A stretch of 49,462 nucleotides of DNA from a virus (IMGVR_UViG_3300010365_001407:1-49462); one strand, 5' to 3'. Shown: positions 1,399 through 46,854, counted from the stretch's first letter. The notes: generated from the letters alone by a model not told the origin. Program-made: numbers and translations.

Positions 1399-2433
1399 TT
1401 ATATTTTTATATCATTTTTCATCATGATTCCTACAAGTTCTTTGAACTTTACTTTAGGTTCCCAACCTAATTTCTCCTTGGCCTTTGTATAATCTCCTAA
1501 GAGAGTATCAACCTCTGCAGGTCTATAATATCTATCATCAATTTCAATTATTACTTTACCATCTTTAGTAACTGCCTTTTCGTTTACTCCCTCACCTATC
1601 CAATCTATATCTATTTCACATTCTAAGACTGCCTGGTTAACAAAATCTTTAATTGAGTATGTTTCATTAGTTGCTAAAACATAATCATCTGGAGTGTCTT
1701 GTTGTGTCATTAACCACATTCCATAAACATAGTCTTTAGCATAACCCCAATCTCTTTTAGAATATAAATTACCTAATTTCAATGTTTCAAAATTGGTTTT
1801 ATCAGTTAGTGCTTTTTTAATTTTACCCAAAGCAATAGTAATCTTTCTTGTAACAAATGTCTCACCTCTTCTCTCACCTTCATGATTAAAAAGTATTCCA
1901 TTACTAATATGCATTCCATAAGATTCTCTATAATTCTTTGTTATCCAAAGACCATACATCTTGGCACATCCATAAGGAGATCTTGGATGCATAGGTGATT
2001 CTTCTGTATAACCAGTGGTTGGCATATTATAACCCATCCCACCATATAATTCAGAAGTAGAAGCTTGATATATTCTTGCTTTAGGATGATGGTTTTTTAC
2101 TGCTTCTAAAACTGCTAGTGTACCTAATCCATCAACTTGTGCAGTATAATAAGGTATTTCAAATGAGACTTTAACATGAGATTGTGCACCTAAGTTATAA
2201 ACTTCATCTGGTTTAATCTCATTTACTAGGTTTGATATAACTAAAGGATCAGTTAAGTCACCATAATGTAATTTTATCTTATCAAAAATGTGATCTATTC
2301 TATCAGTGTTAAATGTAGAACATCTTCTAATTATACCATGTACTTCATAACCTTTTTCTAAAAGAAGTTCAGCTAAATGTGAACCATCCATCCCTGTTAT
2401 TCCTGTTATAAGTCCAACTTTTTTATTTGACAT
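1399..2433 (-). CDS. gmd: GDP-mannose 4,6-dehydratase
   Basis: [46 protein letters not shown] motifs. Confidence 0.97.
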
Positions 2434-3406: not shown

Positions 3407-5512
3407 TTACTCTTCTTTTTCTTCTTTTTTCTTTCTTGTTTTCTTAACTTCTACAAAAGAAATATCATTTTCCTTATCATAGTCTAAGTTAAGTGTAGTT
3501 CCTTGTTTAGGATTGTTCTCAATGATGTATTCAGTCACAGTATCATCAATCCATCTTTGAATTGCTCTTTTCAATGGTCTTGCACCAAACTTAGGATCAT
3601 ATCCAACAGTAACCAAGTGTTCTTTTAAGTTTTCAGAGATAGTTAATTCATAACCAATATCAGAGCCTCTTTGTAGAGTTTTAACTAATTCTAAGTCAAC
3701 AATTTTAAGAATTTCTTCTTTACCTAAATCTCTAAAGTAGATGATTTCATCCAATCTATTGATAAACTCAGGTGCAAATTTCTTAGATAGTTCTTTTTCT
3801 AAGATACCTTTGATTTCTTCAACTCTTTTGTCTGCTTTACCTTTAGTAGAGAATCCAACTCCAGTTCCAAAATCTTTAACTGTTTTAGTTCCAACATTTG
3901 ATGTCATTAATATAACACAATTCTTAAAACTAACTTTTCTACCATGTGAATCAGTAACATGACCATCATCTAACATCTGTAAGAATAAATTAAATACATC
4001 AGGGTGTGCTTTCTCAATTTCATCAAAAAGAATTACTGAATAAGGTTTTCTTCTGATTTTGTCTAAGAAGTTTGCGTCTTCATACCCAACATACCCAGGT
4101 GCAGCACCTTGAATTCTTGTTAATGATATTTTCTCCATATACTCAGACATATCTAATCTGATTAAAGCATCCTCAGTTTCAAACAAATATTTAGACAATT
4201 GTTTTGCCAATTCTGTTTTACCAACTCCAGAGTTACCAATTAAGATACCACTAAAGATTGGTTTGTTTGGATCCTTCATACCAACTCTACCTCTTTGAAT
4301 AGATTTAACAATTTTCTTAACTGCATCATCTTGTCCAATAACTTTACCAGCAATGTTATCATACATCTTAGCAAGTTTAGTATTCTCATTTTGATTTACT
4401 CTATGAGCAGGAATACCAGTAATCATTGCAACTACTTCTGCAACATTTTCCTCTGTTACCGTTTCTTTGTTCTCAATACAATACTCTTCCCATTTTTCTT
4501 TTTCAATATTCAAAGACTTTTCAAATTGTTTCTCAGTATCTCTTAACTTAGCAGCATCTTCATACTTTTGTTGTTTGATAACAAGATTTTTCTTTTCTCT
4601 AATCTCTGTAAGTTTAGTTTCAAGTTGAGTAATTGCTTCTGGAACTACAATATTTGAAATGTGAACTCTTGCACCAGCTTCATCTAAAGCATCAATAGCT
4701 TTATCAGGTAAGTGTCTATCAGACATATATCTTACCGTCAAGTCAACACAAGCAGCAATTGCTTCTGGTGTATAAACTACATTGTGGTGGGACTCATATT
4801 TATCTTTAATATTGTTAAGGATTTCTAAAGATTCTTCTGGAGTAGCTGGTTCAACAATTACTTTTTGGAATCTTCTTTCTAATGCAGAATCTTTTTCAAT
4901 ATGTTTTCTGTATTCATCAAGAGTTGTTGCTCCAATGATTTGGATTTCACCTCTTGCTAAAGCTGGTTTAAACATATTAGAAGCATCCATAGAACCAGAT
5001 GCACCACCTGCACCAATCATAGTGTGTATTTCATCAATAAACAAGATAATGTCTGGTTGGTTTTCAACTTCAGCCATAAGAGCTTTAATTCTCTCCTCGA
5101 ATTGTCCCCGATACTTCGTCCCCGATACCATTGCTGCCAAATCCAACATAACAACTCTTTTATCAAAGAGAATTCTACTAACTTTTCTTTCAACAATTCT
5201 AATTGCCAATCCTTCTGCAATTGCTGATTTACCTACTCCGGCCTCTCCTAAAAGTATCGGATTATTTTTCTTTCTTCTTGATAAAATTTGAGATACCCTT
5301 TCAATTTCCTTTTCTCTACCAACAATAGTATCAAGTCTTCCTTCTGCAGCCATTTTTGTTAAGTCTCTAGAGTAAGTATCTAAGACAGGTGTATTAGATT
5401 TTTCATTACTTGATTTTTTAGGATTTCCAAACTTGTTATCATATTCATCATCATCATCTTCTAAAGATGCTTTAATTTCAAATGATTTTTTAAGATTTTC
5501 TTTATAAGTCAT
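3407..5512 (-). CDS. clpC: ClpC/ClpB-family AAA+ ATPase lacking N-terminal Clp-repeat domain
   Basis: Two AAA modules (GEAGVGKS/FIDEIH; GNSGVGKT/LFDEIEKAH), UVR-type coiled coil (QQKYEDAAKLRD), FGARPLKR; NBD1 begins about 40 aa from the start. Confidence 0.9.
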   Translation of the reverse strand: MTYKENLKKSFEIKASLEDDDDEYDNKFGNPKKSSNEKSNTPVLDTYSRDLTKMAAEGRLDTIVGREKEIERVSQILSRRKKNNPILLGEAGVGKSAIAEGLAIRIVERKVSRILFDKRVVMLDLAAMVSGTKYRGQFEERIKALMAEVENQPDIILFIDEIHTMIGAGGASGSMDASNMFKPALARGEIQIIGATTLDEYRKHIEKDSALERRFQKVIVEPATPEESLEILNNIKDKYESHHNVVYTPEAIAACVDLTVRYMSDRHLPDKAIDALDEAGARVHISNIVVPEAITQLETKLTEIREKKNLVIKQQKYEDAAKLRDTEKQFEKSLNIEKEKWEEYCIENKETVTEENVAEVVAMITGIPAHRVNQNENTKLAKMYDNIAGKVIGQDDAVKKIVKSIQRGRVGMKDPNKPIFSGILIGNSGVGKTELAKQLSKYLFETEDALIRLDMSEYMEKISLTRIQGAAPGYVGYEDANFLDKIRRKPYSVILFDEIEKAHPDVFNLFLQMLDDGHVTDSHGRKVSFKNCVILMTSNVGTKTVKDFGTGVGFSTKGKADKRVEEIKGILEKELSKKFAPEFINRLDEIIYFRDLGKEEILKIVDLELVKTLQRGSDIGYELTISENLKEHLVTVGYDPKFGARPLKRAIQRWIDDTVTEYIIENNPKQGTTLNLDYDKENDISFVEVKKTRKKKEEKEE

Positions 5513-14715: not shown

Positions 14716-14722
14716 ATTTTAG

Positions 14723-14796
14723 CAGACATACCCGGACTCAAACCAGGATCCACCCTCTGACACGAGAGTACTCTTACTCAATTAAGCTATATGTCT
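14723..14796 (-). tRNA. atypical tRNA-Asp-like (GTC)
   Basis: AGACATA/TATGTCT acceptor, G73; anticodon loop GTGTCA of irregular size. Confidence 0.55.
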
Positions 14797-16327: not shown

Positions 16328-16396
16328 TTAATGTGATATAAATACATAGTTAGTCTGGTTCGTGATACGATCCTGATCCTGCATCGGCTGCGGCAT
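16328..16396 (-). CDS. leader peptide 1 MPQPMQDQDRITNQTNYVFISH
   Basis: ATG CCG CAG CCG ATG CAG GAT CAG GAT...CAT TAA; first 9 residues are only M/P/Q/D, matching array-1 tRNAs. Confidence 0.75.
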   Translation of the reverse strand: MPQPMQDQDRITNQTNYVFISH

Positions 16397-16431
16397 AACT
16401 ACTATATTTTTATATCACATTTTCATAATAC

Positions 16432-23540: not shown

Positions 23541-23576
23541 AAAAAGACATTATCTAATTTTTGATAATGTCTTTTT
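23541..23576. terminator. hairpin terminator closing tRNA array 2
   Basis: AAAAAGACATTATC...GATAATGTCTTTTT 14-bp inverted repeat. Confidence 0.8.
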
Positions 23577-24002: not shown

Positions 24003-24581
24003 CTATTTTATTTCTAAAAGATTTTCATGTATTTCTCTATGACAATTTGCACATACTAAAATACACTTATCTAATTCATCTTTAATCTTATCCCAAGCTG
24101 TACACATATTTTTAGATAGTGTAAAATCTTTTTTAGAGGGATCCAAATGGTGAAACTCTAATGCGGATACACACTTATTATATTCACATATAACACATTT
24201 ACCACCTTTATATTCTACTGCTTTTTCTTTTGTTCTTTTTCTAAATGTTTTTGTTCTTATATAGTTAGACTTTCTTCTATCATCATCACTATCAAATGTA
24301 AACTTTTTATTCTCACCATATTTGGTAACGGTACTTCTACCTACACCAAATTCCTTCATTGTTTCCTCTATAGAATTTAGTTTATAAAATTCTTTCAATT
24401 TTTCAATTTCATCTTTATCTAACTTTTTACCAGAATTAAGACCTATATCATTTAACATTTCACTCTTACAAAAGTAAGAAATTAAACTTCTAGAACAATT
24501 TAATTCTTTTTGTATTTCTCTATAGCTTTTACCTTGTTTTCTTAGTAAAATTATATTTTCTTTTTTAGAACCTTCAACCAT
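24003..24581 (-). CDS. HNH homing endonuclease inside tRNA array 2
   Basis: N-terminal HTH; CVICEY...LEFHHLDP...CILVCANCHREIH. Confidence 0.9.
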   Translation of the reverse strand: MVEGSKKENIILLRKQGKSYREIQKELNCSRSLISYFCKSEMLNDIGLNSGKKLDKDEIEKLKEFYKLNSIEETMKEFGVGRSTVTKYGENKKFTFDSDDDRRKSNYIRTKTFRKRTKEKAVEYKGGKCVICEYNKCVSALEFHHLDPSKKDFTLSKNMCTAWDKIKDELDKCILVCANCHREIHENLLEIK

Positions 24582-25410: not shown

Positions 25411-25420
25411 ATATTTATAT

Positions 25421-25456
25421 AAAAAGAAAAGACCCAAACTTTATGTTCGGGTCTTT
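25421..25456 (-). terminator. attenuator terminator upstream of tRNA array 2
   Basis: Minus strand AAAGACCCGAAC-ATAAA-GTTTGGGTCTTT-TCTTTTT. Confidence 0.85.
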
Positions 25457-25480
25457 AGAAATTGTTTATAATATATGAGT

Positions 25481-25570
25481 TTATACTATACATAACTGCT
25501 TACCCGATGTTGTGTTATTCACACAATTCGTAATCGTAATCACATTAATATTTATAGTAGTTGTTTTCAT
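25481..25570 (-). CDS. leader peptide 2 MKTTTININVITITNCVNNTTSGKQLCIV
   Basis: 29-aa ORF starting 6 nt after TAATATATA; residues 3-21 are only T/I/N/V/C, the array-2 amino acids. Confidence 0.85.
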   Translation of the reverse strand: MKTTTININVITITNCVNNTTSGKQLCIV

Positions 25571-25575
25571 TGTTT

Positions 25576-25646
25576 TATATATTAAATTTTTATTGTCCCT
25601 TTTTGGTTTTTTTTGTTTTTCTTTGATTATTTATAGTACAAAAGTA
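25576..25646 (-). promoter_or_regulatory. tandem promoters for array 2: TAATATATA (25576-25584) and TACTTTTG (25639-25646)
   Basis: Motif recurrence at the same relative positions as arrays 1 and 3. Confidence 0.7.
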
Positions 25647-26487: not shown

Positions 26488-26568
26488 TACCCCAGATAGG
26501 ATTCGAACCTATATTTTCAGTTTCCAATTACCCGTAGTTGTTTAGAAGACAACTGGGACTACTGAGGC
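26488..26568 (-). tRNA. D-armless tRNA-Arg-like (TCT) with very long variable region
   Basis: GCCTCAG/CTGGGGT acceptor; GTTGT-CTTCTAA-ACAAC; T arm ATAGG-TTCGAAT-CCTAT; same 81-nt layout as 24877..24957. Confidence 0.6.
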
Positions 26569-27324
26569 ATATTTTAACCATTTTCTTATAGAGTTATCAC
26601 TAACTCCATATTTTCTACCTGTTCCACAATATCCTAATTCTTTAATATCTATTTCTAATTGTTCAATTGATGGTCTTTCTTTTATTCTTAGTGATTTAGT
26701 ATGACATGTATTACAATTTTTTGATGTCTTTTTTATTTGTTTACCACAAGAACAAATATTTTTAATTTTTAATTTTTTAACTTTTATTTTTTTAACTTCT
26801 TCTAATTCACTTCTATTCAAATATTTCTCATTTCTATATTCTGATTTACTACTTTTATTTAGGTTACCACCACAATATGTAGATGTTTGACTATGACAAT
26901 TTGGACACAATATTCTTAAATTATCTATTCTATTATCCATATTATTACCATTTATATGGTCTAAATGAAATGATAGTGGTTTACCACACCAGCTTTCTAT
27001 ATTACATAATTCACATTTACTATCTTTTAATCCCTCTTTTATTAATCTAATTTTAAGATGATGTGTACTTGTATAAGTAGAGTTCTCAACCAAAATATCT
27101 GATATATCTGTTATTTTATTAACAGGTTTATATCTCAAACCAGTATTCCAACCTTGTCCTGTAAAGTGTGATATATCTATATCATATAAATTAATATACT
27201 TTTTTATTGTCTTATAATTACCACCTGCTGGCCTAATTTCTAATCTTCTACAAACTTCTGCAGTGGATAAAACCTCCTTTACTATTTTTTCCAACTCTTC
27301 TTTATCAATCTTATACTTACTCAT
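26542..27324 (-). CDS. HNH homing endonuclease inside tRNA array 3
   Basis: CELCN...HLDHINGNNMDNRIDNLRILCPNCHSQT; paralogue of 15174..15836; C-terminus overlaps the tRNA at 26488..26568. Confidence 0.9.
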   Translation of the reverse strand: MSKYKIDKEELEKIVKEVLSTAEVCRRLEIRPAGGNYKTIKKYINLYDIDISHFTGQGWNTGLRYKPVNKITDISDILVENSTYTSTHHLKIRLIKEGLKDSKCELCNIESWCGKPLSFHLDHINGNNMDNRIDNLRILCPNCHSQTSTYCGGNLNKSSKSEYRNEKYLNRSELEEVKKIKVKKLKIKNICSCGKQIKKTSKNCNTCHTKSLRIKERPSIEQLEIDIKELGYCGTGRKYGVSDNSIRKWLKYASVVPVVF

Positions 27325-27558: not shown

Positions 27559-27568
27559 ATTAATTTTA

Positions 27569-27670
27569 ATTAATAGTAGGACTTGAACCTACACTAAGTT
27601 TATTTCATCCTTAGCCATATCCTCTATATCTCTGTATAAAGTTAGGTGTTTACCAGTTCCACCATATCAA
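27569..27670 (-). pseudogene. tRNA-Leu-type body with expanded, non-canonical anticodon/variable region
   Basis: D arm GGTGGAACTGGTAAACAC and T arm GTAGG-TTCAAGT-CCTAC present; no standard anticodon arm. Confidence 0.5.
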
Positions 27671-27673
27671 TTG

Positions 27674-27752: not shown

Positions 27753-27790
27753 AAAACAAAAAACCCAAAACTTTTTGAGTCTTGGGTTTT
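27753..27790 (-). terminator. attenuator terminator upstream of tRNA array 3
   Basis: Minus strand AAAACCCAAGACT-CAAAA-AGTTTTGGGTTTT-TTGTTTT. Confidence 0.85.
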
Positions 27791-27813
27791 GTTATTTGTT
27801 ATACTTTAATTGA

Positions 27814-27915
27814 TTACCAACTAAAATCATTTCCAAATTGAGCAAAACCCATCCCTTGTCTCAAAGATAAGACAGTCAGTGTTAAGTTTCTTCTATTTAG
27901 AATTGTTGTGTTCAT
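27814..27915 (-). CDS. leader peptide 3 MNTTILNRRNLTLTVLSLRQGMGFAQFGNDFSW
   Basis: 33-aa ORF starting 6 nt after TAATATATA; Leu x5 (CTA,TTA,CTG,TTA,TTG) and Arg x3 (all AGA) within residues 6-19. Confidence 0.8.
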   Translation of the reverse strand: MNTTILNRRNLTLTVLSLRQGMGFAQFGNDFSW

Positions 27916-35597: not shown

Positions 35598-37160
35598 CTA
35601 TTGTTCTATAAATTCTTTCCAAAAATCTTCTCTAAAATATGTGAATAATCTCCAATCTATTCTAAAGTTACCCCAACTTGTACCTTCTAAAACAAGTTTG
35701 AACTTTTTTGATTCTAAAGCCATTTTTAGATTTGATATATTATCTTTATTAATTTTAATACCCATTGCACCTTGTGTCATTCCATATTCCCCATTTATAT
35801 CAGCAACAACATTGTTAATACCACTCTCACCAAAAATTACTTTAGTAAATCCAAAATGTTTATCATTTTTAACACTTGTCCAATATAATCTATTTCCTGA
35901 TTTATTAGTAGAATGTATTAATGGGTAGATATGTTCATTAGTTTTATTTAAACTAACATATTCATATCTATTGGTGGCAGTATGATAATATGTATTCCAT
36001 ATTAAATCACATTTGTTCTCATTATTATTTGTAATTATCTTTTTTATAATATCAAAATTTTTATTTGGTAAAAATGGCCATTCTCTAATATCAATTATAT
36101 TTTCTATACCATCTTCATCAATGATAGTTATTGGTTTATGATAACTTTTATTTTGCATTAAATACCAATCATATCTAGTACCAGCACCAAAAGTAGATAA
36201 TCCATCCTTCACACCATGTATTTCTAGATAAACTATTTGATATTTAGTAAAAAAATTATATAACCCCTTATTTTTTGAATTTTTTGACTCTGGCTTTCTC
36301 CACATAGATGGATGAACAAATAATAAATACTTTGACTCATTTAATAAACTCATTGATTTAATTACAAATTTATCCCAAAGTGAACGACCTCCACCTCTTT
36401 TACTACCAATCATAATTTGGTCATCATTATAAGGTGGATTACCTAAAATTATATCAAACTTATCAATATTCCAGACATCTTTCATATGTCTATCAAAACC
36501 ATCATCCAAAAATGATCCCCAATATGCATTTGTAGTATATTCATCTTTTGGATCAACACCACACAACCACAAAAAAACATTTCTTGATTGTAGTTCACAA
36601 GTATAAATCATATTCTCAACAATATGTTTATATCTCTTCTCTTCATCAGACTCCCATTCAATTAACCCATTCATTAATTTATAAATAACAACAAATGGAA
36701 ATGTACCTGCCCCATTAGCAGGATCTAACCATTTTAAATCAGGATTAGACCATACTTCTTTTGGTAAAGAATCAAGCATTTCTCTAACTAAAGTAATTGG
36801 TGTCATTACCTCACCATGCTTTTTCTTTTCTACTTCACCATCTTTAACAAATTTATTAATAATTTTGATAACATCCTTAATATGTTCCATTTTATTAACA
36901 TTATCTCTAACATATGATACCATTTCTGACCACAAGTGGTTAACATCACCTTTTCTTTCTTTATCAATAAGTGATAAAACTGCAAGTCTTTGTTTCTCTT
37001 TTGGAAGAGAAAGTATAAACTCTGTTAGATTTTGATCATCAGAATGTTTATTAAGTATAATATCTGAAATTAATTTTTCAAATATTTCACCATCCTTAGT
37101 TTCTTTATATTGTTCATATACATTTGGATGCATTGAAAAACTTGCCCCTATAAAACCCAT
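35598..37160 (-). CDS. N6-adenine DNA methyltransferase (Eco57I/gamma-class-like)
   Basis: GEVMTP, LDPANGAGTF (motif I), ILGNPPY (motif IV). Confidence 0.88.
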   Translation of the reverse strand: MGFIGASFSMHPNVYEQYKETKDGEIFEKLISDIILNKHSDDQNLTEFILSLPKEKQRLAVLSLIDKERKGDVNHLWSEMVSYVRDNVNKMEHIKDVIKIINKFVKDGEVEKKKHGEVMTPITLVREMLDSLPKEVWSNPDLKWLDPANGAGTFPFVVIYKLMNGLIEWESDEEKRYKHIVENMIYTCELQSRNVFLWLCGVDPKDEYTTNAYWGSFLDDGFDRHMKDVWNIDKFDIILGNPPYNDDQIMIGSKRGGGRSLWDKFVIKSMSLLNESKYLLFVHPSMWRKPESKNSKNKGLYNFFTKYQIVYLEIHGVKDGLSTFGAGTRYDWYLMQNKSYHKPITIIDEDGIENIIDIREWPFLPNKNFDIIKKIITNNNENKCDLIWNTYYHTATNRYEYVSLNKTNEHIYPLIHSTNKSGNRLYWTSVKNDKHFGFTKVIFGESGINNVVADINGEYGMTQGAMGIKINKDNISNLKMALESKKFKLVLEGTSWGNFRIDWRLFTYFREDFWKEFIEQ

Positions 37161-40707: not shown

Positions 40708-41826
40708 ATGAAATTAAGAGTAATTGAACTATTTGCAGGAATAGGAAGTCAACATAAAGCACTTAAAAATATTGGAGTTGATTGTGAAGTAGTAGGTATA
40801 AGTGAATGGTCTATTGACTCAATCATAAGTTATGCCAATGTTCACCACAATTCAAATGAAACAACTGACTTAACTAAAGAAGAAATACTTGAAGAACTTA
40901 AAAACTTTACTTTCTCTTCTAATACCAAAACACCTATCAAAACAAGTACACTTAAACTTGATCGTCTAAAGAAATTATATGTAGCTAATAAAAACTCTAA
41001 AAATCTTGGATCAATTGTTGATTTAAAAGGTTCTATGACACCAGATCATGATTTATTAACTTACTCATTCCCTTGCCAAGATTTGTCAAACCAAGGATCT
41101 CAAAGAGGTTTATTTGAAGGCAAATCATCTTCTTTGTTATGGGATGTAAACAGATTACTAAATGAATTAAATGAAGAAGGTAGATTACCTAAATATCTTT
41201 TAATGGAGAATGTACCTGCTATTTTTGGAGATAAAAATAAAGATGGTTTTAATATCTGGAAAGATAATCTTAAAGAAATGGGTTATATCAACTTTGACTT
41301 TAAATTGAAAGCATCATACTTTGGTATTCCTCAAAATAGAGAAAGAGCTTATATGGTTTCTATCTTAAATGGTACAGAGAATGATTTTGCTATTCCTACT
41401 CAAGATAAGTTAACTGATTTAACTATTTCTGATATTTTAACTCCTAATCAAGTTAGTAAATATTACTTAGACTTTAAAAGATTTTATCCACCTACAATTA
41501 AAACAGATAAAACTAAAAATGGTATTAGTTGTTTTGATTTAGTTGGTTACACTAATTTTGCAAGTGAAAAGAAAGTATATCACTTAAATAGTATATCACC
41601 AACAATTACTGCAACAGGTGCTCAGTCAAGAATTAAAGTATATGAAAATGGTGAGATTAGAATATTAAGTCCAAGAGAATGTTGGAAGATGATGGGTTTC
41701 ACTGACTCAGACTTTGATAAAGTAGAAGGAACTTTAATTGATAGTGCTTTGACTAAACAAGCTGGAAATTCAATTGTAGTAAATGTTTTAGAAGCAATCT
41801 TCACAAATCTATTAAAACCCTCTTAA
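40708..41826 (+). CDS. dcm: DNA (cytosine-5) methyltransferase
   Basis: ELFAGIG, SFPCQDLS, MENV, QNRER, QAGNSI motifs. Confidence 0.95.
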   Translation: MKLRVIELFAGIGSQHKALKNIGVDCEVVGISEWSIDSIISYANVHHNSNETTDLTKEEILEELKNFTFSSNTKTPIKTSTLKLDRLKKLYVANKNSKNLGSIVDLKGSMTPDHDLLTYSFPCQDLSNQGSQRGLFEGKSSSLLWDVNRLLNELNEEGRLPKYLLMENVPAIFGDKNKDGFNIWKDNLKEMGYINFDFKLKASYFGIPQNRERAYMVSILNGTENDFAIPTQDKLTDLTISDILTPNQVSKYYLDFKRFYPPTIKTDKTKNGISCFDLVGYTNFASEKKVYHLNSISPTITATGAQSRIKVYENGEIRILSPRECWKMMGFTDSDFDKVEGTLIDSALTKQAGNSIVVNVLEAIFTNLLKPS

Positions 41827-45630: not shown

Positions 45631-45674
45631 GCTAACTTTATATAAAATTAAATCACCTACCGGTTTTTTAATTG

Positions 45675-45748
45675 TTGGCAAGGTGGGTAACGATCCCACT
45701 CTCTCATGTGTATAAGACATACGCTTTTACCGTCTAAGCTACTTGCCA
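45675..45748 (-). tRNA. tRNA-Ile (TAT)
   Basis: TATGT-CTTATAC-ACATG; A73; T loop ATCGTTA. Confidence 0.85.
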
Positions 45749-46404: not shown

Positions 46405-46439
46405 AAAAAAACCCAATCTGTTTTTGCCAGATTGGGTTT
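46405..46439 (-). terminator. attenuator terminator upstream of tRNA array 4
   Basis: Minus strand AAACCCAATCTG-GCAAAAA-CAGATTGGGTTT-TTTT. Confidence 0.87.
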
Positions 46440-46464
46440 GTTGTTTTATAATGTTTTTACTCCA

Positions 46465-46566
46465 TTACTTTATACACATAACGCTTCTGACCGATGGTAT
46501 TCTATACCCCGCCTCATATCCGCCTATCGCTTCTATTGCTATTGTTATGTTAGTAATTGTTGTCAT
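46465..46566 (-). CDS. leader peptide 4 MTTITNITIAIEAIGGYEAGYRIPSVRSVMCIK
   Basis: 33-aa ORF; residues 9-21 are only I(ATA)/A/E/G/Y, matching array-4 tRNAs; 6 of 7 Ile codons are ATA. Confidence 0.85.
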   Translation of the reverse strand: MTTITNITIAIEAIGGYEAGYRIPSVRSVMCIK

Positions 46567-46749: not shown

Positions 46750-46783
46750 ATATATTGTTTTGTGAGACTATCTCTCAACTTTG

Positions 46784-46854
46784 TAGCGTAGCGTGGATTC
46801 GAACCACCCCTTGGAGTTTATGAGACTCTAATGCAACCTTTACACTTTAACGCG
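46784..46854 (-). tRNA. divergent fMet-like tRNA (CAT)
   Basis: CGCGT start with 1:72 mismatch; CT-CAT-AA loop; weaker acceptor stem. Confidence 0.65.

Follow-up and report, generated by a model that had tools for sequence, protein, structure and literature searches.

A codon-matched leader ORF and a candidate transcription attenuator ahead of a phage tRNA gene array

The tRNA-rich contig and transcription unit 2

The window considered here, i.e. the whole stretch of 49,462 bp that was analysed, is the start of a 113,462 bp virus contig of ~28% GC from activated sludge/wastewater. ARAGORN identifies 38 tRNA genes in the window and 47 contig-wide, which fall into six blocks and lie on the minus strand throughout. 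Most of these calls were confirmed by an Rfam scan, which added two weak tRNA-like matches that ARAGORN does not call. The anticodon loops of two ARAGORN calls are aberrant (`gt' and `cgat'). These four loci (Table 1) may represent tRNAs with unusual loops, tRNAs with introns or degenerate copies. Pfam matches in the window include a ClpB-like double AAA+ ATPase, a GDP-mannose 4,6-dehydratase, a C5 cytosine methyltransferase and an Eco57I/N6-type methyltransferase-like protein. An alternative genetic code was also considered and rejected: ORFs lengthen about equally when TGA or TAG is read as sense, which gives no signal of recoding.

The phage GenBank collection contains no close relative of this contig, with a single match of 519 bp in near mode and zero matches to the leader in distant mode. 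The closest GenBank phage record is a distant relative, the uncultured LR745206.1 (634,780 bp). Other relatives were gathered by pattern scans of IMG/VR and metagenomes; the related IMG/VR contigs have CheckV completeness values of 16-43% and are therefore taken to be fragments of larger phages.

The features of the second transcription unit are listed in Table 1. The spacing of the putative promoter P1 agrees with the -33/-7 consensus TTTG/TAnnTTTG described for Bacteroidota (PMC6847099), and the P1 block is conserved upstream of cassettes 1, 2, 3 and 5. Between P1 and the TTAATATATA motif lies an A-rich untranslated region. The TTAATATATA motif occurs in 33 copies in the contig, mostly 4-25 nt ahead of the ATG of an ORF, those of homing-endonuclease genes included; examples in the window, all on the minus strand, are found at 25585, 27930, 16441, 24608 and 27353. 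Because most of the 33 copies stand just before ORF starts, we read TTAATATATA as probably a phage-specific promoter element. If transcription begins just past this motif, the leader mRNAs would be wholly or almost leaderless. We also note an AAAGG/GGGA-like element that often lies ~20 nt upstream of TTAATATATA.

Downstream of the leader the intrinsic terminator and its T-run are followed directly by the array, with no gene between the terminator and the first tRNA (tRNA-Asn, 25410). The gap between hairpin and tRNA is too small to hold a promoter, and transcripts from P1 must therefore read through the hairpin to make the array-2 tRNAs. The array contains Asn (three genes), Ser(cga), Ile(gat) (two), Val(tac), Val(aac), Cys (two), Thr(tgt) (two) and Thr(agt). 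ORFs with an HNH motif (CxxC...HH...CxxCH), each behind a TTAATATATA motif, are found in or ahead of arrays at 24003-24581, 26542-27324 and contig position 58700-59164 (all minus strand), and in cassette 5 an HNH-motif gene separates the first tRNA from the terminator of the candidate attenuator. The homing-endonuclease genes inside arrays carry their own promoter-like motif, which could drive the distal tRNAs independently.

Table 1. Positions of the features discussed in the text (numbered from the first nucleotide of the window; `contig' marks a position given for the contig).
Feature	Position	Strand	Description
Promoter P1 (putative)	25670-25639	-	-33-like TTAGGT 25670-25665, -7 box TACTTTTG 25646-25639; Bacteroidota sigma-A type
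TTAATATATA motif	25576-25585	-	5 nt before leader 2 ATG
Leader ORF 2	25570-25481	-	29 codons + stop; translation MKTTTININVITITNCVNNTTSGKQLCIV
Regulatory block, codons 3-22	25505-25564	-	19/20 codons readable by array-2 anticodons
Optional outer antiterminator strand UUGUGU	25526-25521	-	Nested partner of ACAUAA (5' arm end + loop); bipartite duplex -11.8 kcal/mol
Antiterminator 5' strand UCGGGU (codons 22-23)	25507-25502	-	Exact complement of ACCCGA 25452-25447
Intrinsic terminator hairpin 2	25428-25456	-	12-bp stem, 5-nt loop, -16.2 kcal/mol; 5' arm 25456-25445, 3' arm 25439-25428
T-run after hairpin 2	25417-25427	-	Ends ~6 nt before tRNA-Asn
tRNA array 2	25410-23580	-	13 genes: Asn, Ser(cga), Asn, Asn, Ile, Val, Val, Ile, (HNH ORF), Cys, Thr, Cys, Thr(agt), Thr
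HNH-type ORF interrupting array 2	24581-24003	-	Behind a TTAATATATA motif
Terminator closing array-2 transcription unit	23541-23576	-	Second terminator
Cassette 1	16396-16276	-	Leader starts MPQPMQDQD; terminator 16305-16276; Asp/Gln/Pro/Met array
Cassette 2		-	T/I/N/V/C(/S) leader; Asn/Ser/Ile/Val/Cys/Thr array
Cassette 3	27760-27915	-	Leu + Arg(AGA)-rich leader, terminator; Arg(tct) + Leu x4 array
Cassette 4	46409-46566	-	Ile(ATA)/Thr/Glu/Gly/Tyr/Ala leader, terminator; Tyr/Glu/Ile(tat)/Thr/Gly array
Cassette 5	Outside window	-	F/K/H/W-rich leader; Lys/Phe/His/Trp array
Cassette 6	Outside window	-	Ser run + CGC Arg codon in leader; Arg(acg)/Ser(tga) array
Four odd tRNA-like loci (as grouped)	26488-26568, 27568-27671; 14722-14796; contig 57189-57282	-	Rfam/ARAGORN
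Four Pfam-matched genes (as grouped)	3407-5512 (-), 1399-2433 (-), 40708-41826 (+), 35598-37160 (-)		

Leader codons and the tRNA genes downstream

The sequence-only reading had described leader 2 as an ORF in which 22 of the 29 residues (T7, I5, N5, V3 and C2) belong to five amino acids and in which codons 3-21, 19 in succession, specify nothing else. Retranslation reproduces the counts, the coordinates and the uninterrupted run. The same reading had remarked that Cys occurs twice in both leader and array and that the ACT ACT codons fit the Thr(agt) tRNA of the array, and we find both to be the case. Its account of array 2 as Thr/Ile/Asn/Val/Cys is right for these five amino acids and incomplete as a set, since tRNA-Ser(cga) had been overlooked. 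Codon 22 of the leader is TCG, which fits this tRNA, and the matched run is therefore 20 codons long.

In the six-frame translation of the 113,462 bp, the run of 19 residues is the longest composed of T/I/N/V/C and the runner-up is 11. Given the six-frame composition, in which the set has a frequency of 0.29, ~1e-5 runs of at least 19 are expected, and the longest such run in 60 first-order Markov genomes did not exceed 13. These run statistics exclude the possibility, raised in the sequence-only reading as grounds for abandoning its claim, that an AT-rich background explains the composition. When standard wobble rules are applied with long ORFs as background, array-2 anticodons can decode 19 of the 24 codons from position 2 to position 25 (background 0.26, p about 1e-7). 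The ATA codons at positions 6 and 28 are read by no array-2 anticodon, and Ile(tat) is found in array 4; AGY Ser codons in other leaders are also unread by the tRNAs downstream of them. The leader start has A at positions -3, -6, -12 and -13, which are positive initiation determinants reported for Bacteroidota in the absence of a Shine-Dalgarno sequence. We regard it as virtually certain that cassette 2 is genuinely codon-matched.

The same cassette architecture is common to all six tRNA blocks of the contig (Table 1). With the amino-acid and codon sets defined from the tRNA genes alone, before the leaders were considered, the cognate assignment of leaders to arrays is the best of the 720 permutations at both the residue level (summed -log10 binomial p of 21.6) and the codon level (23.9). 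Leader 4 contains three Ala codons (GCA, GCG and GCG), and no tRNA-Ala was found in the contig by ARAGORN or by BLAST with the tRNA-Ala of relatives. These codons are explained by the array 4 of two related IMG/VR contigs, which ends with Gly(gcc) and Ala(tgc).

Several further observations concern individual cassettes. In the present contig the last Gly gene of array 4 is followed by an ORF of 265 amino acids (45111-44314, minus strand). An anticodon that is unusual in bacteria, TAT, is found in the tRNA-Ile at 45674-45748 (minus strand). Six of the seven Ile codons of leader 4 are ATA, while those of leader 2, whose array has Ile-GAT, are mainly ATT. In leader 1 of the relatives a conserved ATG stands 5 nt after TTAATATATA and is in frame into MPQPMQDQD (MKNVN[VK]NIVVMPQP...). 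The same frame here (16396-16426, minus strand) reads ATG AAA ATG TGA, and in view of this in-frame stop either the Pro/Gln/Met/Asp block must start at the internal ATG at 16396 or the leader is damaged. Upstream of tRNA-Met (46749) there is a tRNA-like remnant with GGTTCGAATCC (46780-46850, minus strand), which stands behind a TTAATATATA motif and lacks a leader ORF.

Four IMG/VR contigs were retrieved by a scan with the promoter-block pattern, and the leaders of all their six cassettes are near-identical to those described here. A second pattern, degenerate so as to allow synonymous change in codons 7-18 of leader 2, yielded 27 loci representing 22 unique variants. Wherever the arrays downstream of these variants could be read they consist solely of Asn, Ile, Val, Cys and Thr tRNAs, with differences in order and copy number. 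Codons 7-18 are identical at the nucleotide level in 21 of the 22 variants. The replacements among the variants are of seven types that stay within the amino-acid set versus three that leave it (M4, Y19 and A21), which is a small sample. A metagenome contig, L045, carries a hybrid leader, the N-terminal part of which corresponds to cassette 2 and the C-terminal end of which resembles cassette 3 of the relatives (...DYDGV); downstream of it come Asn, Cys and a tRNA called by ARAGORN as `Stop(tta)', which may be suppressor-like.

In the more distant LR745206.1 the tRNA genes are grouped differently. The stretch SYESYYEE occurs in the leader of a Glu/Tyr array, and ISIAVIGNGAGAI (I/G/A) in that of a separate Ile(tat)/Gly/Met/Gly block, ~2 kb beyond which Gly(gcc) and Ala(tgc) are found. 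A merged Asn/Arg/Leu/Val/Ile/Thr/Met array is preceded by a leader that is likewise merged, in which N, L, M, T, V and I are abundant and a Cys and an Arg are also present. The leader of a Pro/Asp block contains PVNPQPQDQDP, and three tRNA-Gln genes stand behind a 16-codon leader of their own with seven Gln codons. This correspondence shows that the leaders track array content through splits and merges. Each of these cassettes also has its own hairpin and T-run and a complementary leader segment, for example CUGAGGGUU with AACCCUCAG.

Terminator and predicted alternative folds

All six leaders of the contig end in a strong hairpin followed by a U-run. TCGGGT (25507-25502) and ACCCGA of the terminator 5' arm, the pairing of which was put forward in the sequence-only reading, are exact complements. 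A second pairing proposed there, TTATGT with ACATAA, is complementary but crosses the TCGGGT:ACCCGA helix, and for this reason we have rejected it as part of the same nested fold. The alternative outer strand UUGUGU is optional, and a local hairpin (UUGUGU/ACACAA) competes with it. Folding analysis, which the earlier reading had named as a check, predicts mutually exclusive terminator and antiterminator folds that share the 5' arm. For RNA that ends short of the 3' arm, all six cassettes are predicted to pair the 5' arm with the leader segment that directly follows the matched codons.

The UCGGGU:ACCCGA helix of cassette 2 has 6 bp and closes an interior of ~49 nt; in most relatives it has 7 bp (UUCGGGU:ACCCGAA). 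In cassette 3 the antiterminator has 8-9 bp, (U)GGGUUUUG:CAAAACCC(A). The terminator is favoured at equilibrium, and a switch between the folds would therefore have to be kinetic. The fold of the leader 2 RNA is more stable than those of 200 of 200 shuffles (z = -3.6).

The energy of the UCGGGU:ACCCGA duplex is -10.4 kcal/mol, whereas dinucleotide-shuffled versions of the upstream RNA give -5.0 +/- 1.7 (p=0.007). Combined over the six cassettes by Fisher's method, the comparison of leader-arm duplexes with shuffles gives 7e-4, with cassettes 1, 4 and 6 individually non-significant. A test of the energy gained on adding the 5' arm to the upstream fold gives p=0.03 for cassette 2 and a Fisher value of 0.004, with cassettes 3, 4 and 6 not significant. 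This latter test penalises cassettes with strand 2 already engaged in a 1:2 hairpin, and we have therefore relied on a permutation across cassettes. For 13 cassettes, six from this contig and seven from LR745206.1, the summed energy of the cognate leader-arm pairs was not matched in 100,000 permutations (p<=1e-5); the cognate pair ranks first in six of the 13.

To represent a stalled ribosome, all RNA between the 5' end and a point 12 nt beyond the first base of the A-site codon was masked. In these masked folds the antiterminator of cassette 2 is kept when the ribosome stands at any of codons 1-18 and is lost when it stands at codon 19 or later, up to the stop. In each of the six cassettes the transition falls no more than a few codons from where the matched block ends, which is the arrangement that classical attenuation calls for. 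A clear 1:2 anti-antiterminator hairpin is not evident in the folds of cassette 2. The local hairpin present there (leader nt 41-66) overlaps just 3 nt of UCGGGU, and with so little of the strand sequestered an untranslated transcript might read through. Cassette 3 has clearer 1:2 pairing than cassette 2.

Among the relatives UCGGGU is invariant in 21 of the 22 variants, with variation in the neighbouring codons, and UCGGGU and ACCCGAAC are both essentially invariant while the remainder of the 3' end of the ORF and the spacer are variable. As both pairing strands are invariant, they show no covariation in cassette 2. The base of the terminator 2 stem has undergone a compensatory G-C to A-U change in relatives. 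A compensatory U:A to C:G change is seen in cassette 3, but a third type of variant places C opposite A and breaks the terminal pair; the apparent three-way covariation is suggestive only.

Proposed attenuation, alternatives and known systems

In our view, the tRNA block is probably gated by a ribosome-mediated (leader-peptide) transcription attenuator of the ilv/thr/trp type. The sequence-level predictions of this interpretation that were tested, namely the promoter, start context, terminator, alternative pairing, sister cassettes and co-variation, all agree with it. Transcription would start upstream of leader 2 and a ribosome would translate the 29-codon leader close behind the polymerase. 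Were charged Thr, Ile, Asn, Val or Cys tRNA scarce, the ribosome would linger at about codons 3-18 and leave UCGGGU free to pair with ACCCGA of the terminator 5' arm; the terminator hairpin would then not form and the polymerase would continue into the 13 tRNA genes. With fast decoding the ribosome would cover UCGGGU, or sit in the antiterminator loop at the stop codon, and block this pairing, so that the terminator would form and transcription would end ~6-15 nt before the first tRNA. Since host and phage tRNAs both read the leader, such a circuit would be a negative feedback loop, which would hold the supply of array-2 tRNAs at the level that decoding needs. What the analysis establishes is the ORF with its matched codons, the terminator and the specific complementarity to it, the six parallel cassettes and their co-variation with array content; the translation of the leader, the stalling and the direction and size of the effect are our inference.

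Other readings of these features have to be weighed. A codon-matched and translated leader could act not on termination but on precursor processing or stability, for example through ribosome rescue, or on Rho shielding, with the hairpin serving as a constitutive partial terminator or processing signal. The short antiterminator of cassette 2 and the weak thermodynamic tests for cassettes 1, 4 and 6 would be in keeping with this, but it leaves unexplained both the cognate leader-arm complementarity (p<=1e-5) and the agreement between stall window and matched block in six of six cassettes, and we think it improbable. We find it still harder to accept that the polarity is reversed or non-specific, such that overall translation capacity is sensed (for instance during host shut-off) or that fast translation promotes readthrough. 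It is true that the direction of regulation is deduced from geometry alone and that, without a strong 1:2 hairpin, the untranslated RNA may default to antitermination. A general sensor, however, would not need six leaders that each spell out their own array and track the splits and merges of LR745206.1, and since the leader 2 stop codon lies ~25 nt before the hairpin a terminating ribosome would not reach the terminator.

The near-invariance of codons 7-18, even at synonymous sites, might point instead to a leader that acts as RNA, the triplets of which bind uncharged tRNAs at their anticodons, much as a T-box specifier does, and stabilise an antiterminator. Against this, the ATG, open frame and stop are kept in all six leaders, the substitutions in relatives preserve the frame and in most cases do not lead out of the amino-acid set, T-boxes use a single specifier codon and not twenty, and an Rfam scan of 14000-48000 at the gathering threshold returned tRNA matches only and no T-box; we consider this reading very unlikely. 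As for coincidence, AT-rich DNA does favour Ile and Asn, and T/I/N/V/C make up 29% of six-frame residues, so a spurious ORF between the terminator of an upstream gene and the array might be imagined. The ~1e-5 runs expected and the runner-up of 11, the match of six of six cassettes to their own arrays, the conservation of the ORF in 22 variants and the leader-array co-variation in LR745206.1 all speak against it, and the presence of a promoter upstream of hairpin 2 argues that this hairpin is not simply the terminator of the previous gene. We give chance practically no weight.

If leader-peptide attenuation does operate here, it would provide direct, amino-acid-specific feedback on tRNA supply and would extend trp/his/ilv attenuation to a new class of target. 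Sequence alone would predict which tRNAs are co-regulated, as with the Ala codons of leader 4 and the tRNA-Ala of the relatives, the cassettes could serve as compact, programmable parts for sensing decoding speed, and the response of a phage to depletion of host tRNAs would become testable. Phage tRNAs are usually seen as constitutive codon-usage helpers or as decoys against tRNA-targeting defences. We suggest tentatively, as a possibility that we would not yet favour, that giant phages split their tRNA repertoire into modular regulons with their own decoding sensors, each raising the subset of tRNAs that is being read slowly; this might include counter-defence against a host anticodon nuclease or tRNA degradation and might be widespread in unrelated tRNA-rich phages.

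Among the amino-acid operons of enterobacteria, multivalent leader-peptide attenuators are known from ilvGMEDA (Ile/Leu/Val) and thr (Thr/Ile), and those of trpL, hisL, leuL and pheL respond to single amino acids. The leader-peptide attenuator pheL has been described (PMC3082878). The present cassettes share with ilv and thr a short 5' ORF that is rich in regulatory codons and covers several amino acids, an intrinsic terminator just before the first regulated gene, an antiterminator that uses the terminator 5' arm with its other strand at or after the regulatory codons, and the decoding speed of specific codons as the presumed signal. They differ in that the regulated genes would be tRNA genes, so that feedback would act on tRNA and not on amino-acid supply, in that a leader covers up to six amino acids, and in that six cassettes partition nearly the whole tRNA repertoire. 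The setting is also that of a phage and of Bacteroidota, without a Shine-Dalgarno sequence, and cassette 2 has no convincing 1:2 hairpin.

In layout and logic, the ilv and thr attenuators together with pheM-pheST stand closest to the cassettes described here. In E. coli the pheM leader attenuates pheST, the operon for phenylalanyl-tRNA synthetase. This is also leader-peptide attenuation of a component of the translation machinery, but pheM controls a synthetase for a single amino acid and not tRNA genes. T-box riboswitches, found in Firmicutes, bind uncharged tRNA directly and do not need translation. They too sense tRNA status through a terminator/antiterminator switch upstream of translation-related genes, whereas the presumed sensor here is an ORF with its ribosome. 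The only regulated accessory tRNA array that we found in the literature is the trn operon of Anabaena, an array of 26 tRNAs that is repressed by TrcR and induced by translational stress (PMC10272220). Both arrays would be switched on when translation is impaired, but trn relies on an RHH protein repressor at the promoter, without a codon-matched leader, an attenuator or amino-acid specificity. Full-text literature searches turned up no report in which leader-peptide attenuation acts on tRNA genes. The known targets of leader-peptide attenuators are genes for amino-acid biosynthesis, transport and aminoacyl-tRNA synthetases, whereas here 13 tRNA genes lie downstream; the new element is thus the use of tRNA genes as the presumed target of an otherwise known attenuator design.
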